Below are positions 2,614 to 10,994 of a DNA stretch of 64,000 bases, piece by piece. Source of the stretch: Candidatus Latescibacterota bacterium (GTDB lineage: Bacteria > Latescibacterota > UBA2968 > GCA-2709665); the NCBI GenBank assembly GCA_963662665.2, contig CAXXJS010000005.1:1-64000 (forward strand). Reading direction: 5' to 3'. A program made the position numbers and the translations under genes. The notes under the pieces were generated by a model. That model saw nothing but the letters and a program-made list of their open reading frames with translations, ran no database searches and was not told the DNA's origin. Positions within the stretch are counted from its first letter, which is position 1. Each line of letters opens with the position of its first letter.

Positions 2614-2650
2614 GTCTCAATCCCTATTCTGATGGATAATTCTCACCGGT
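2614..2650 (-). repeat. Solitary degenerate CRISPR repeat
   Basis: gtctcaatccctattctgatggataattctcaccggt, 28/37 identical to the main array repeat, same orientation. Confidence 0.75.
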
Positions 2651-2953
2651 GTCGTTTCGGCGCCCGGCGCGGGCACGTTCGGCATCCGCCTTCTCCCACG
2701 CTGCCAATTGTTCCGCGGTGGGAACATACAGGCCTGCTCTCCTGTAGTCTTCGTCACGGTAAGGCGTGCCGTCGGCATGCCAGGCGAGGCCGACGATCGG
2801 GTCGGTGAACCTTTCACCTTTACGTCCGGAATCTCGTCTATCCATGCGGTACCAGGCACCTTTTTCATGTAGGCTCCTCACCGGGCATTGTGGCCTGTGG
2901 TTAGTGGCCAATCCGTTTTCTTTCGCCCTGATCAGGCCATCCATGAACGGCAT
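2624..2953 (-). CDS. Small hypothetical protein, paralog of 10707-10994 (start uncertain: 2953 or 2845)
   Basis: WHADGTPYRDEDYRRAGLYVPTAEQLAAW is 18/29 identical to the paralog; the stop codon lies inside the degenerate repeat. Confidence 0.65.
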   Translation of the reverse strand: MPFMDGLIRAKENGLATNHRPQCPVRSLHEKGAWYRMDRRDSGRKGERFTDPIVGLAWHADGTPYRDEDYRRAGLYVPTAEQLAAWEKADAERARAGRRNDTGENYPSE

Positions 2954-3673
2954 AAGGGTGCAACTTACCTTGATTCGCAATTCTTCGGGGAAGTAAAACC
3001 GAATATATGCAAGTAGATAAAGGCGATTTAACTTCTGATTACCAGGATACACCAGGTCACTGGACGTGGACTGAAAAAACGTCCTTTTTGACGACCGTTA
3101 CGCCCCGTTTCAGGGGTTTTCGTCGCGTTGCCGAGTTGCTGTTTTTTCACATAGAGGCTTAGCGTGAATAAAATCGCAAAAAAGGCGGTTTCCTTACCCA
3201 AGGCATTGTATTATATTGTGGTTACGCAAATCACGATAACACAATGAAACAGCGGGAAACTACCGCGGAAGATCAGGATAGACATCTCAGGGTGTCTTTC
3301 GAAATTCTTCCCGGTAAGCCGGTAGAATCCACCTTCGACGGGGCGTCCTGAGCAGCCTGCCTGTGCGTGTACGCTCGCAAACACGCGACAGCGTTGTGAT
3401 GCTGCCTCGTGACGTGGCGGGCTGTTTATTTCGAATTCGGGCTGATCCGTCACAGCCCGGGCACTGCATGGCGACAACCGAACGGATAATAATGCGATTT
3501 GTAGCATATTGCGGCCCGGAACAGCCAAAAAGCCACCCGCACTGGTGCGGGCCCTTCGATACCACCGAATCAGGGCCTTCCCGTAACGCGTTGCGCTGCT
3601 CTTCGCCCGGTGGAGACCGGCTTCGGCCCGGATCCCGCAACGCCGGCGGAACGGCGAAGGAGGCAGGGCACCG

Positions 3674-6600
3674 GTGAGATCGACCAGCAGCCGGGATCGG
3701 CGCCGCCGGCAGGTCAGACGTTTGCCTGGAGAGCGCATTCTGGTCCTCGATGGCGCGATTGGGACCATGATCCAGAGGTACGGACTGGACGAGGCCGACT
3801 TCCGCGGCGACCACTTTGCCTCGCACACCACCCCCCTTCTGGGCAACAACGATCTTCTCTCGCTCACCCGCCCCGACGTAATCGGCGAGATCCACCGCGC
3901 CTACCTGGCAGCGGGCGCCGACATCATCGAGACCAACACCTTCAGCTCCACACGGCTGCCGATGTCCGACTACGCGGTCGAGGACGCGGTTGCCGACATC
4001 AACCTCGAGGCCGCCAGGATCGCGCGGGAGGCCGCGGACGAATACACGGCACGCACGCCGGAGCGGCCCCGTTTCGTGGCCGGGGTCCTGGGCCCGACGA
4101 ACCGCACCGCTTCCATATCCGCCGACGTGAACAACCCGGGCGCGAGGCAGGTCACCTTCGAAGAGCTCCGCGCCGCGTACGGCGAACAGGCCCGTGCCCT
4201 GATCGCCGGCGGCGTGGACCTCCTCATGGTCGAGACTGTTTTCGACGCCCTGAACGCGAAGGCGGCCATCTTCGCCATACTGGAGGTGCAGGAAGAGACC
4301 GGACTGGACATCCCGATCATGATCTCGGGGACGATCACCGACCAGAGCGGTCGCACGCTGACCGGGCAGACCCCGGAGGCCTTCTACAATTCGCTCCGGC
4401 ACGCCGCGCCGCTCTCCTTCGGGCTGAACTGTGCCCTGGGGCCCGACGCGCTGCGGCCCTACCTGCAGGAACTTGCGACCGTTTGCGAGAGTTGGCTGAG
4501 CTGCCACCCCAACGCGGGCCTGCCCAACGAATTCGGAGGCTACGACCTGTCGCCTGAAGACATGGCGCGGACCATGGGCGAGTTGGCGCGCGCAGGGTTC
4601 CTCAACTTGGCCGGCGGCTGCTGCGGCACGACCCCGGAACATATCGCCGCGATCGACGAGGCGGTGGACGGCGTGGCTCCGCGGCCGTGCCCCGAGTACT
4701 CCGTGCGGACCCGCCTGGCGGGACTGGAACCCGTCACCATCGGGCCCGACTCGCTCTTCGTGAACGTGGGCGAGCGCACCAACGTGGCCGGTTCCGCCCG
4801 CTTCGCCCGCCTCATCCGCAACGGGGACTTCGAGACCGGACTCGAGGTGGCGCGCCAGCAGGTTCGGGGCGGCGCCCAGATCATCGACGTCAACATGGAC
4901 GAGGGGCTGCTCGACGCCGAGGCGGCGATCGTAAGGTTCCTGAACATGATGGCAGCCGAGCCCGAGATCGCGCGGGTCCCCTTTATGATCGATTCTTCGA
5001 AGTGGGAGGTGATCGAGGCCGGGCTGAGGTGCGTGCAGGGAAAGGCGGTCGTGAACTCGATCAGCCTGAAGGACGGCGAGGACGCGTTCCGGGAGAAGGC
5101 GCGGCTGGCGCGCCGTTACGGGTCGGCGGTGGTTGTCATGGCCTTCGACGAGAGCGGCCAGGCGGGCACCGCGGGCCACAAGGTGGAGATCTGCACCCGC
5201 GCCTATGACATCCTCGTGCGCCAGGAGGGCTTTCCGCCGGAGGACATCATCTTCGACCCCAACGTCTTCGCGGTTGCGACGGGGATCCCGGAGCACAACG
5301 AGTACGCGGCAGCCTTCATCGAAGCGACCGGGCGGATCAAGGAATCCCTTCCCCATTGCCTCGTAAGTGGCGGCGTCAGCAACGTCTCCTTCTCTTTCCG
5401 CGGGAGCCACGGGGTGCGAGAGGCCATGCATTCGGCCTTCCTGTACCACGCGGGGCGGGCCGGCATGGATATGGGAATCGTAAACGCCGGCGCGATTGCG
5501 GTTTACGATGAGATTCCGGATGAGTTGCTGGAAGCGGTGGAAGATGTGCTGTTCAACCGGCGGGAGGACGCGACGGACCGTCTGACGGCACTGGCGAGGA
5601 GCTACCGGGCAGGCTCGGGCGGAGACGTCGAGGATCTGTCGTGGCGCGAGTCGCCGGTGGAGGAACGGCTGAGCCACTCGCTGGTGCACGGAATCACCGA
5701 CTACATCCAAGAGGACACCGAGGAGGCGCGGCGGGGAGTGAGACGGGCGCTCGACGTGATCGAGGGGCCGCTGATGGCGGGGATGAACACCGTCGGCGAC
5801 CTGTTTGGCTCCGGGAGGATGTTTCTCCCGCAGGTTGTCAAAAGCGCCCGCGTGATGAAGCGCGCGGTGAGTTACCTGGTTCCGTACCTGGAGCGCGAGA
5901 AAACGGCCGACGGAAGGGACCGGTCGGCCGGGCGCATCGTGCTGGCAACCGTGAAAGGCGACGTGCACGACATTGGCAAGAACATCGTCGGGGTCGTGCT
6001 GCAGTGCAATAATTACGAGGTTTTCGATCTGGGAGTGATGGTGCCCGCGGAGGCGATTCTGGAGAAGGCGCACGAGGTGGACGCCGATATTGTGGGTCTT
6101 TCGGGGTTGATCACGCCCAGCCTCGACCAGATGGTGCATGCGGCCTCCGAGATGGAGCGCGCCGGCATGGAAATCCCACTGCTGATCGGCGGCGCCACCA
6201 CGTCACGGGTCCACACAGCCGTGAAGATCGAGGAGCGGTACTCGGGCGCCACCATTCACGTGCTCGACGCCTCGCGCTGCGCGGAGGTGGCGGGGAAGCT
6301 GCTCGACCCGTGCAACCGTGCGGCATACACAGCCGGCATCCGCGAGGAGTACGCGGCCCTGCGAAGCAGAAGAGGAGCGACGCGACGCCGGGCTGCCCTG
6401 CTCTCGCTCGCGGACGCCCGCGCGAACCGGCTGTCGCTGGACTGGAATCGCTACTCCCCCGTCCGCCCGGCCTGGACCGGTAACCGGATTTTTCCCGCCA
6501 TCCCCGATCGCCTCGTCGCCGGCGGCCACGGTCCCTCCGCCGCCCCCTCGCCACAAACCGCCTCGTCCTACGACCTCGGCGAACTGGTCAAACGGATCGA

Positions 6601-10499: not shown

Positions 10500-10511
10500 C
10501 CACGGCCTCGT

Positions 10512-10693
10512 GTTTCAATCCATGTTCTGATGGAAAATTCCCGGCCAGAGAATATAAGCCTTCCGTCCCGATTCCGAAAATGGTGTTTCAACTCTTATTC
10601 CAATGGAAGTCTCTCACGGGACACCGACTGCCGGTCACCGGCCACTGCCTCTATGAGTTTTACTCCTCGTTCTGATGGAAGTATCCCAACGGG
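10512..10693 (-). CRISPR. Degenerate CRISPR mini-array (3 repeats, 2 spacers of 36 nt)
   Basis: Repeats at 10512-10548 (30/37 to consensus), 10585-10620 (36 nt, diverged) and 10657-10693 (32/37); spacers at 10549-10584 and 10621-10656. Confidence 0.9.
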
Positions 10694-10706
10694 TGTTCCC
10701 GACCGA

Positions 10707-10994
10707 TTAGTCGGTATCCAATTCGCGTTTCAGGTCGGCGATCCACCGTTCGGTCTCGGCCCAGTGGGCGAGCTGTTCGCGGGTGGGCACGGGCAGGTTG
10801 GCCTTTTCGTAGTCCGCATCGGTAAACGGTCGGCCGTCCGGGTGCCAGCATTGGAAGGCGGCGGGGTCCTGGCGATTCTTAACGTGTTCAGACATATCGA
10901 ATTTCATTCCTTGCTGTGATGGAAGATGTCCAACGAATCGAGCCGTCGACGATCTCTCCGTCCTGGTCTGTGTTTTGGCCCGGGCACTGCTCAT
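10707..10994 (-). CDS. Small hypothetical protein directly upstream of the mini-array
   Basis: ATGA overlap with the upstream gene; contains WHPDGRPFTDADYEKANLPVPTREQLAHW; stop is 13 nt before the first repeat. Confidence 0.7.
   Translation of the reverse strand: MSSARAKTQTRTERSSTARFVGHLPSQQGMKFDMSEHVKNRQDPAAFQCWHPDGRPFTDADYEKANLPVPTREQLAHWAETERWIADLKRELDTD

Follow-up and report, generated by a model that had tools for sequence, protein, structure and literature searches.

To our knowledge, the non-immune roles described for CRISPR repeats (CreTA, autoregulatory mini-arrays, tracr-like RNAs and RNA anti-CRISPRs) are all based on short non-coding RNAs, and we know of no natural case of a protein gene flanked on either side by true CRISPR repeats. 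Repeat-bounded genes are familiar from integrons, whose gene cassettes are promoterless short genes arranged in tandem downstream of a common promoter. In GhoST, a type V toxin-antitoxin system, and in synthetic cistrons insulated by Csy4/Cas6, a Cas-like endoribonuclease cuts an mRNA at a defined site and so sets its expression. CreT toxins are, in the account available from PMC8501985, tiny RNA or mini-ORF elements that sequester rare tRNA. For the locus described here, the original prediction had proposed a small protein plus an adjacent crRNA-like RNA; instead, the gene itself occupies the spacer position between two repeats. This gene is a conserved protein gene, and its start codon is positioned relative to the crRNA handle.

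The window, that is, the whole 64-kb stretch of DNA that was analysed, carries a CRISPR-Cas locus identified as type I-B by Pfam matches to all eight genes (Cas6b_N/C, Cas_TM1802, Cas_Cas7, Cas_Cas5d, Cas3, Cas1, Cas2 and Cas4) together with the adjoining array, whose 37 repeats lie in three segments:

28055..36860, minus strand: type I-B cas operon (cas6b, cas8b, cas7, cas5, cas3, cas1, cas2, cas4), from Pfam matches
25971..27883, minus strand: leader-proximal CRISPR array segment, 26 repeats of 37 nt; the 3' end of the repeat (minus strand) is ATTGAAAC
21858-22769 and 23611-25185: transposase genes splitting the array
20253..20513, minus strand: array segment of 4 repeats, separated from the leader-proximal one by the transposase genes
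18120..18617, minus strand: array segment of 7 repeats, the final one with a one-base difference in the compared part

The array repeat is CCCGTTGGGACTCTTCCATCAGAACAAGGATTGAAAC, and the repeat spacings give ordinary array spacers of mostly 35-38 nt, up to ~53 nt. Sites outside the arrays that match this repeat at 24/37 or better number five in the window, all on the minus strand and all at the two places where small-protein genes lie (copies A and B), so the repeat copies beside these ORFs are not a chance occurrence. Both places had been put at 7-15 kb from the array, correctly, since the nearest array end is at 18120. Between that end and copy B, the Pfam-scanned ORFs are all on the minus strand. 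The two places comprise the following features:

10901..10937, minus strand: degenerate repeat 5' of copy B, 28/37 to the array repeat, handle altered to AATGAAAT
10707..10895, minus strand: copy B small-protein gene, 62 aa (MSEHVKNRQDP...DTD), subfamily B, HMM E = 8e-40
10657..10693, minus strand: degenerate repeat 3' of copy B, also the first mini-array repeat, 32/37, beginning 13 nt past the stop codon
10512..10656, minus strand: remainder of the mini-array (spacer 10622-10656, repeat 10585-10621 at 26/37, spacer 10549-10584, repeat 10512-10548 at 30/37)
10470..10509, minus strand: terminator-like hairpin with A tract and T tract, directly 3' of the last mini-array repeat, RNA fold -18 kcal/mol, z = -2.2
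2849..2885, minus strand: decayed repeat 5' of copy A, 23/37 to the genus-wide cassette repeat, first 9 nt intact, handle lost
2624..2845, minus strand: copy A small-protein gene, 73 aa (MDRRDSGRKGERFTDPIVG...), subfamily A, HMM E = 1e-29
2614..2650, minus strand: degenerate repeat 3' of copy A, 28/37 to the array repeat and 31/37 to the cassette repeat

The ORFs had originally been drawn at 2624-2953 and 10707-10994, with starts too far upstream; because the homologues are 58-64 aa long and the junction between repeat and gene is conserved, we place the starts at ATG 2845 (73 aa) and ATG 10895 (62 aa). The 29-residue motifs by which the two genes had been linked (2696-2782 and 10761-10847, both on the minus strand) were recomputed exactly, with 18/29 residues identical and 8 of these 18 using different codons, and BLASTP between the two ORFs gives 24/52 identities (E = 7e-13). 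Copies A and B are paralogues, representing subfamilies A and B, and both lie on the trailer side of the type I-B locus. The diverged repeat reported downstream of each motif (28/37 at 2614-2650 and 32/37 at 10657-10693) was reproduced. Each gene also has a repeat upstream, absent from the original description: the one at 10901-10937, which lay inside the overlong ORF, ends 5 nt before ATG 10895, and the decayed one at 2849-2885 ends 3 nt before ATG 2845. Two further degenerate repeats at copy B (10585-10621 and 10512-10548) had likewise been overlooked. The inserts between the flanking repeats, 207 nt at copy B (10694-10900) and 198 nt at copy A (2651-2848), hold the ORFs and are not of canonical spacer length; the copy A stop codon falls within the downstream repeat. 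In the copy A orthologue of genome G014, an intact handle is followed by 4 nt and then the ATG. The copy B product is identical to a 62-aa protein (P0004), and its AlphaFold2 model has a mean pLDDT of 80.

The same unit, consisting of a repeat, 3-5 nt, an ATG, an ORF of ~190-220 nt and another repeat, recurs across the genus, where the protein family is present in 13 of 15 genomes. An HMM recovered 29 distinct copies (E <= 2e-14 in genus loci), none of which lacks a repeat-like flank and 15 of which are flanked on both sides, and the coupling to CRISPR repeats is conserved genus-wide, well beyond the window. The upstream repeat is of the 37-nt type (at least 24/37) in 20 copies and of type I-C in one. 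In 18 of these 20, the repeat end is followed after 2-5 nt by the first in-frame ATG (12 at +4, 5 at +5, 1 at +2), and in the remaining two, namely copy B of the window and its orthologue, it is the second in-frame ATG that lies at +5. An ATG within 0-8 nt that opens an ORF of at least 40 aa follows 25 of 70 repeat-like sites outside regular arrays, compared with 3 of 79 array repeats, and 23 of the 25 repeat-headed ORFs belong to the small-protein family. A cassette directly adjoins the end of a live array in two relatives. The type I-C array of G014 passes without a break into a cassette, its degenerate last repeat being followed by 5 nt and the ATG, and in G011 (locus L028), an array of the 37-nt repeat terminates in one. 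Both repeat types end in GGATTGAAAC, and the spacer-position gene with its start codon placed behind the handle is kept across at least two repeat types and several exchanged cas modules. The same layout across the genus suggests that the protein gene is built for handling like a CRISPR RNA.

The small proteins have no match in Pfam or NCBIfam, Foldseek against the PDB returned nothing at E <= 0.001, the ESM Atlas gave no usable match, and the best PHROG match (E = 0.0039) is to a 39-position family of unknown function. The family comprises 72 representative clusters at E <= 0.001 out of 1.84 billion, of which about one third, being long repeat proteins, are taken to be spurious. Across 224 usable pairs, dN/dS is below 1 without exception (median 0.28), and copy A against its orthologues in G001 and G014 gives 0.28-0.34. 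The family is under purifying selection, which bears out the original view of an unrecognised family selected at the protein level, and a new small-protein family is hereby defined whether or not repeat processing occurs. In other phyla, its homologues are free-standing genes without any repeat. Near homologues outside the genus lie an AbiEii gene and a gene for a Mu F-like head protein, both pointing to mobile or defence contexts. These contexts, and the exact placement of the units at spacer position, would be expected if ~200-nt fragments of mobile elements had been captured as oversized spacers by the adaptation machinery, their conservation being inherited from the donors. But independent captures would not all start 2-5 nt before an ATG and stop at the stop codon, and no relative of the protein was found among 2.9 million viral contigs. 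Moreover, same-subfamily copies in different species, which we took as orthologues, show dN/dS of 0.1-0.35, indicating selection in the host line. We give such captures very little credence.

The family is found in all 10 Cas1-positive genomes of the genus and in 3 of the 5 without Cas1, and in all 8 genomes in which cas1 and the ORFs share a contig, the ORFs follow cas1 on its own strand at 2.4-26 kb, in the direction of array transcription. This conserved chromosomal site downstream of the host cas operon argues against a mobile-element anti-CRISPR island, in which the solitary repeats would act as RNA anti-CRISPRs beside a small anti-CRISPR protein. The small size of the protein and its unrecognised family would suit such an island, and solitary repeats on viruses and plasmids often adjoin anti-CRISPR genes, as far as PMC10651486 covers them; but viral homologues were not found in the contigs searched, and no integrase or phage genes flank the cassettes among the Pfam-scanned ORFs of the window. 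An island of this kind is very improbable.

Over their 3' two thirds, the flanking repeats are more conserved than expected under neutrality: upstream repeats differ by 0.12-0.19 over their 3' 25 nt, by 0.29-0.41 over their 5' 12 nt, and the fourfold sites of the adjoining ORF by 0.33-0.71. Gene conversion among copies could produce low repeat divergence. The resident systems near the cassettes are of type I-B, I-C and related kinds, and the cassette repeat stays much alike across species whose neighbouring cas modules differ (Cas6b; Cas6 PF09559; Csd1/Cas5d; a Cas6-less Cas5-Cas8-Cas7-Cas3 set). None of Cas1, Cas5, Cas5d, Cas6, Cas6b or Cas7 was found in G002, G006 and G008, which keep intact cassettes with equally preserved repeats and two of which are single contigs; the repeats may therefore be retained for a Cas-independent reason. 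On such an account, the gene would have landed once in an old array end and encode a protein unrelated to CRISPR, the 3' part of the repeat would serve as 5' untranslated region with AAGGA as ribosome-binding site, the next repeat would form the 3' end, and copies would have multiplied via recombination between repeats. The steadiness of the repeat beside changing cas modules, the free-standing homologues elsewhere and the use of Shine-Dalgarno-like motifs by the genome (1058 of 2976 long ORFs, versus 380 in the control) are all consistent with this. However, the AGGA of the repeat precedes the ATG by 11-12 nt, a distance that falls in the tail of the genome's spacing distribution (peak 6-8 nt), and the ~25 conserved nucleotides exceed the needs of a ribosome-binding site. 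Nor does it account well for the like use of 37-nt and type I-C repeats, which have only the handle in common, or for the presence in every Cas1-positive genome and the constant same-strand position downstream. We regard the Cas-independent account as possible, if on balance somewhat unlikely.

The mini-array at copy B has two spacers, both of normal length (35 and 36 nt), set between three degenerate repeats, and a close relative (L037) carries a near-identical one; no mini-array adjoins copy A or most of the copies in relatives. The stretch 10512-10693 resembles creA in form, which has two degenerate repeats around a spacer-sized pseudo-spacer, whereas the ORF units do not. In CreTA, this pseudo-spacer pairs in part, seed first and next to a PAM, with the promoter of the neighbouring toxin gene, and in a CreR-type autoregulatory mini-array the spacer matches the cas8 or cas6 promoter region of its own locus. 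The original prediction had favoured a CreTA/CreR-type arrangement, with a crRNA-like RNA from degenerate repeats guiding Cascade to repress a toxin ORF or the cas promoter, and mini-arrays are indeed common in type I-B systems and can be regulatory according to 10.1101/2023.03.03.530964. The spacers at copy B, however, have no target in the genome, the best matches of 13-18 nt being at chance level, and no seed match (no more than 2 mismatches over the first 12 nt, with at least 16 matches overall) lies in or upstream of the cas operon. Beyond the spacers themselves, only 39030 and 55999 pass this threshold in the window, both outside the cas operon, the arrays and the two cassettes. The ORF, furthermore, encodes a conserved protein of 58-73 aa and not a mini-ORF RNA toxin, and its intact copies in the three genomes in which no cas genes were found speak, indirectly, against a toxin freed by Cas loss. 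This reading has become improbable.

We put at about even chances that the spacer-position gene is a cassette excised by the crRNA endonuclease. The cassettes would be transcribed together with the array or its trailer operon, and the crRNA-making enzyme (Cas6b here, Cas6 or Cas5d in relatives) would cleave at the flanking repeats, giving a ~250-nt RNA whose 5' end is the 8-nt crRNA handle (AUUGAAAC) with the AUG 4-5 nt further on. Cleavage at the repeats would thus couple protein synthesis to crRNA processing. Cas5/Cas7 bound to the handle would mask the start codon, so that translation would take place chiefly when there is more processed RNA than free Cascade subunits. The succession of copy B and mini-array up to a terminator-like hairpin (one not called by the pattern scan) counts in favour of excision. 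The loss of the handle in some window flanks (upstream of copy A, and upstream of copy B, where it reads AATGAAAT) counts against it, as do the free-standing homologues in other phyla. The type I-C Cas5d of G014 and G013 may be unable to cut unstructured 37-nt repeats. Our guess is that the protein is a CRISPR-linked accessory or regulator and not a toxin. A bolder and rather unlikely proposal is that protein genes within arrays form a natural class, 'coding crRNAs', whose mRNA would be matured by the crRNA endonuclease and which would act as a built-in sensor of CRISPR status: with the start codon 4-5 nt behind the handle, Cascade loading and translation would compete for the same RNA, and protein would be made when the CRISPR machinery is saturated, inhibited or lost.

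If endonuclease excision is true, Cas6-type processing would define an mRNA in nature, protein synthesis would be tied directly and testably to the state of the CRISPR machinery, and the 'orphan' degenerate repeats that annotation pipelines throw away would gain a function. If there is no processing, the cassettes are still a clear reuse of a repeat as the untranslated region of a gene.

Among described systems, the Clostridium difficile type I toxin-antitoxin pairs are also small genes adjoining type I-B arrays; as far as PMC5961336 describes them, they are array-adjacent with antisense RNA antitoxins, and neither lie between repeats nor have a start codon set by the handle. RNA anti-CRISPRs are likewise single repeats outside arrays, which Cas6 can bind and cut and which sometimes lie by small protein genes, but in the systems covered by PMC10651486 they reside on viruses or plasmids and act against the host, whereas the cassettes are chromosomal and genus-conserved. 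Regulatory mini-arrays are standalone, partly degraded repeats in or near type I-B loci, a description that 10512-10693 fits; their inserts are spacer-sized and aimed at cas or cargo promoters, and the available part of 10.1101/2023.03.03.530964 describes no protein gene at the spacer position. Also similar is CreTA/creA, as presented in PMC8501985, with handle-keeping degenerate repeats outside the array, linkage to type I-B and a cargo tied to Cas. Its repeats, however, enclose a guide of spacer size, by which an adjacent RNA toxin is repressed, whereas here they enclose a conserved protein gene, no guide-target pair was found, and copies survive where cas genes were not found. Like integron cassettes, the units are tandem repeat-bounded genes whose copy number varies by recombination, but the bounding repeats are CRISPR repeats, 23 of the 25 repeat-headed ORFs belong to one family, and no IntI-like gene occurs among the Pfam-scanned ORFs of the window. 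In its mode of action, the proposed cleavage of the cassette would work in the way of GhoST and of the Csy4/Cas6-insulated cistrons.

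Two small-protein genes of the window, the paralogous copies A and B, belong to a family whose members in this genus occupy the position of a spacer between CRISPR repeats, with a fixed junction between the crRNA handle and the start codon and a constant location, downstream of cas genes with respect to the direction in which the array is transcribed. The features concerned are as follows.

28055-36860, minus strand: complete type I-B cas operon (Cas6b, Cas8b, Cas7, Cas5, Cas3, Cas1, Cas2 and Cas4, by Pfam domains)
36162-36860, minus strand: cas6b, within the type I-B operon
23611-25185, minus strand: transposase gene (rve and Mu-transposase C), splitting the CRISPR array
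21858-22769, minus strand: transposase gene (DDE_Tnp_1), splitting the CRISPR array
10707-10895, minus strand: copy B gene, 62 aa, its product on record as the identical database protein P0004
2624-2845, minus strand: copy A gene, its start reset from homologue lengths

The operon is followed, in the same direction, by an array of 37-nt repeats (minus-strand repeat CCCGTTGGGACTCTTCCATCAGAACAAGGATTGAAAC), which the two transposase genes split into three segments of 26, 4 and 7 repeats. A 25-nt tandem repeat (3.6 copies, 25281-25371) lies between a transposase gene and the array. Because the window's Cas6b is closer to Cas6b of other families (76-78% identity to another family of the order, 68% to one sequence from a further family) than to that of its own genus (only 38% to two genomes), the cas module looks to have been exchanged horizontally.

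Downstream of the array, five degenerate repeat copies, all on the minus strand and scoring 26-32 of 37, are found at 10901-10937, 10657-10693, 10585-10621, 10512-10548 and 2614-2650, and the 64-kb window contains no others of this kind. The original prediction had paired two ORFs with the copies at 2614-2650 and 10657-10693, and its figures reproduce: 28/37 and 32/37 matches to the array repeat, 18 of 29 motif residues identical between the ORFs, and different codons at 8 of these 18. The two ORFs are real and related (BLASTP E = 7e-13), but the limits proposed for them were wrong, as the starts had been placed too far upstream and ORF B ran through the repeat at 10901-10937, which ends 5 nt before the ATG. 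Since homologues have 58-64 aa and P0004 has 62 aa, the limits are 10707-10895 and 2624-2845. Upstream of copy A, a decayed repeat at 2849-2885 (23/37 versus the genus-wide cassette repeat, first nine bases intact) ends 3 nt before the ATG. With these upstream repeats at 10901-10937 and 2849-2885, each gene is in spacer position between two repeats, the inserts being 207 nt (copy B) and 198 nt (copy A) long.

The repeat series next to copy B extends into a mini-array, whose two spacers measure 35 and 36 nt and which is closed by a hairpin with A and T tracts (10470-10509, -18 kcal/mol, z = -2.2 by RNA folding). This hairpin would be terminator-like on its predicted fold alone; the terminator pattern scan did not call it, and the sigma-70 pattern scan gave no minus-strand promoter near copy A or copy B. 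A search of sequencing runs for 10400-11100 listed no RNA run, and several of the runs it listed share 0.24 or less of the words of this segment. A dispersed element of about 130 nt, present in four copies (38433-38566, 41790-42014, 44654-44787), has CAGTGGTC-type motifs; in relatives, similar strings of the form GGTCAGTG stand ahead of several cassette repeats, and GGCCGGTGACCGGC occurs in one spacer of the mini-array.

Because the B and A cassettes are adjacent in G014, another genome of the genus, with one repeat between them, an insertion or rearrangement between the copies seems to have occurred in the window lineage. The 8 kb separating them contain long plus-strand ORFs (3674-9362) and a minus-strand ORF (9438-10364). 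One ORF of this interval has a weak MTHFR match in the Pfam scan, and a peptide motif in a repeat hints at a possible methionine-synthase identity of the plus-strand ORFs. Other features of the window include group II intron domains D1-D4 (Rfam RF02003, 13785-13922, minus strand, 67.7 bits, E = 1.1e-12) with no adjoining reverse-transcriptase ORF, an Nmad3-domain protein ORF (13089-13754) just downstream of this match, and a tandem duplication within an open reading frame at 206-883 (342-nt unit, 2 copies, 82% identical).

Within the genus, a family profile matches 13 of 15 genomes (the window's own counted); outside it, one sister-genus genome has a match, and the 39 genomes searched from elsewhere in the order and class have none. 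The cassette unit (repeat, 3-5 nt, ATG, small ORF, repeat) recurs on the fetched loci, frequently with two to five units in tandem. The prediction had proposed scoring the coupling to repeats with such a profile; in a set of 29 distinct copies (E <= 2e-14), all 29 have at least one repeat flank and 15 have both. The upstream flank is a 37-nt-type repeat in 20 copies and a type I-C repeat in 1, and a downstream repeat is present in 23. Among the 20 copies with a 37-nt-type upstream repeat, the first in-frame ATG lies 2-5 nt past the repeat end in 18; in the other two, the window's copy B and its orthologue, a mutated handle (AATGAAAT in the repeat at 10901-10937) makes an earlier ATG, the regular one being at +5. 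Many family ORFs stop inside the downstream repeat, which often gives the stop codon. Outside regular arrays, 25 of 70 repeat-like sites open an ORF of at least 40 aa within 8 nt; the same criterion picks out 3 of 79 array repeats. The 25 ORFs comprise 23 of the small-protein family and 2 encoding a 403-aa protein.

The 403-aa protein is the sole other family found in a repeat-headed position. Its ORF begins 1 nt past a degenerate repeat (L055 13182-14428 in G008, and L010 in G005) and, matched by position, sits where G014 has a DUF6361 gene (L054 1323-2558) directly after the last cassette. In G001 (L058, G001:C2:262000-281999), solitary repeats are scattered over 11251-19262, a stretch downstream of the cas operon whose genes encode a UDG-like protein, an Exo_endo_phos nuclease, a methyltransferase, a SRAP protein and a NucS-like protein; in the region of the window that matches this locus, an Exo_endo_phos gene lies at 14153-14959. 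A repeat-like 25-mer with 2 mismatches is present on another contig of the window's assembly (G000:C47:9018-9042, minus strand), with no family ORF found there.

Of the 15 genus genomes, 10 yielded Cas1, and the family is present in all 10 of these and in 3 of the 5 Cas1-negative ones. Where one contig carries both cas1 and the ORFs, as in 8 genomes, the ORFs are without exception downstream of cas1 and on its strand, at distances of 2.4-26 kb. The cas modules concerned are:

G000 (the window's own assembly), G005 and G009: type I-B with Cas6b
G001 and G012: type I set with a PF09559 Cas6
G013 and G014: type I-C with Csd1 and Cas5d
G010 and G011: Cas6-less Cas5-Cas8-Cas7-Cas3 set

In G014 the live type I-C array joins the first cassette directly, through a degenerate last repeat, 5 nt and the ATG, and units bounded by the 37-nt repeat come after this cassette. 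The two repeat types have in common only the 3' end ...GGATTGAAAC, which in these subtypes is established as the crRNA 5' handle. The hybrid array itself (L054, G014:C1:4025000-4044999, 2577-5361) begins with 26 type I-C repeats and continues with degenerate type I-C repeats interleaved with window-type 37-nt repeats, with family ORFs between them.

We propose, with about an even chance of being right, that the cassette is a unit transcribed together with the array or a trailer operon and cut out by the crRNA endonuclease, its translation being tied to Cascade loading. The endonuclease would excise an RNA beginning with AUUGAAAC, with the AUG 12-13 nt from the 5' end, and the cut would leave the start codon cut off from the sole Shine-Dalgarno-like element, the AAGGA of the repeat. 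Cas5/Cas7 on the handle would mask the start codon, so that translation would be set by how much processed RNA there is relative to free Cascade subunits. The main rival, that the repeat is only the untranslated region of the gene and the Cas link is historical, we hold to be possible if rather doubtful, and the remaining probability is shared by other explanations jointly. Three genomes speak for this rival: G002, G006 and G008, the first and last of them single contigs, gave no match for Cas1, Cas5d, Cas6 (two models), Cas6b or Cas7, and together retain six copies, four of them intact and two broken, whose repeats show no more wear than those of other genomes. The AAGGA of the repeat could also be a ribosome-binding site, but its distance of 11-12 nt to the ATG is unfavourable by the standards of this genome.

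Protein-level selection, earlier read from the codon differences, is borne out by pairwise dN/dS values with a median of 0.28, below 1 in 224 of 224 usable pairs and mostly 0.10-0.50 in unsaturated ones. For copy A the ratio is 0.28 and 0.34 with the G001 and G014 orthologues, respectively, and 0.86 with the closest relative's copy, which has a stop codon and is probably decaying. Divergence in the upstream repeats is 0.12-0.19 over the 3' 25 nt and 0.29-0.41 over the 5' 12 nt, versus 0.33-0.71 at fourfold-degenerate sites of the ORFs, a comparison in which pairs are non-independent and to which gene conversion could contribute. Judged from these divergences, the flanking repeats are not drifting freely, and purifying selection is indicated for the protein as well as for the handle-side part of the repeat.

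The protein was described as belonging to an unrecognised family, and indeed no Pfam or NCBIfam model matches it; in PHROGs a weak match, to a family of 39 positions and unknown function, was all that came up. Among 1.84 billion representative proteins, a profile search returned 72 matches at E <= 0.001, mostly of 44-160 aa. Long proteins with many short matched stretches, which look like unrelated repeat proteins sharing only the WxxDGxP motif, were set aside from the family. The C-termini of several representatives are translated repeat (...FHQNKD, ...ENLPSEQGLK), so that in their genes, too, the ORF continues into a repeat. In two fused forms (451 and 464 aa) the matches to HTH_73 and AbiEi_4 are all below threshold. 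AlphaFold2 gives a fairly confident model (pLDDT 80), which consists of two short strand residues, a short and extended turn around the WHxDGTP motif and two helices, the first short (26-31), the second long and C-terminal (39-60); Foldseek against the PDB gave no match to it at E <= 0.001, and the ESM Atlas gave no usable match for the protein. The viral contig scan contained no relative, and the metagenome scan yielded two loci, one the copy A orthologue carrying a stop codon and the other taken as a spurious repeat protein; two loci of the genome scan (L051 and L052) were likewise spurious. Homologues in Chloroflexota, Binatia, Dehalococcoidia and Caldilineaceae MAGs have an N-terminal extension like subfamily A and mixed contexts (AbiEii gene, Mu F-like gene, AIM24, MarR). 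They stand free of repeats, which again favours the repeat being only an untranslated region over the proposed processing by the crRNA endonuclease.

The original prediction had taken the ORFs and their repeats for a CreTA/CreR-type protein and crRNA-like module, a reading that the data do not sustain. Searched against the 4.86-Mb assembly, the two spacers of the mini-array gave no target, only matches of 13-18 nt, and no promoter of the window has a seed match to them nearby; with no CreA-like targets, a CreTA/CreR guide role is without support. Most cassettes lack a spacer-bearing mini-array, and loss of cas genes in G002, G006 and G008 was not accompanied by removal of the ORFs. As described in PMC8501985, CreTA has a mini-ORF RNA toxin, whereas the window ORFs encode proteins. 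Full-text literature searches, and the portions of the literature on repeat-like elements, CreTA and RNA anti-CRISPRs available to us, gave no protein gene in spacer position; their supplements, above all that of the repeat-like-element survey, could hold cases. As far as these portions go, the reuse of CRISPR repeats outside immunity is known in general and the protein gene in spacer position would be new, and if processing were shown, the cassette would rank as a new kind of CRISPR-repeat reuse.
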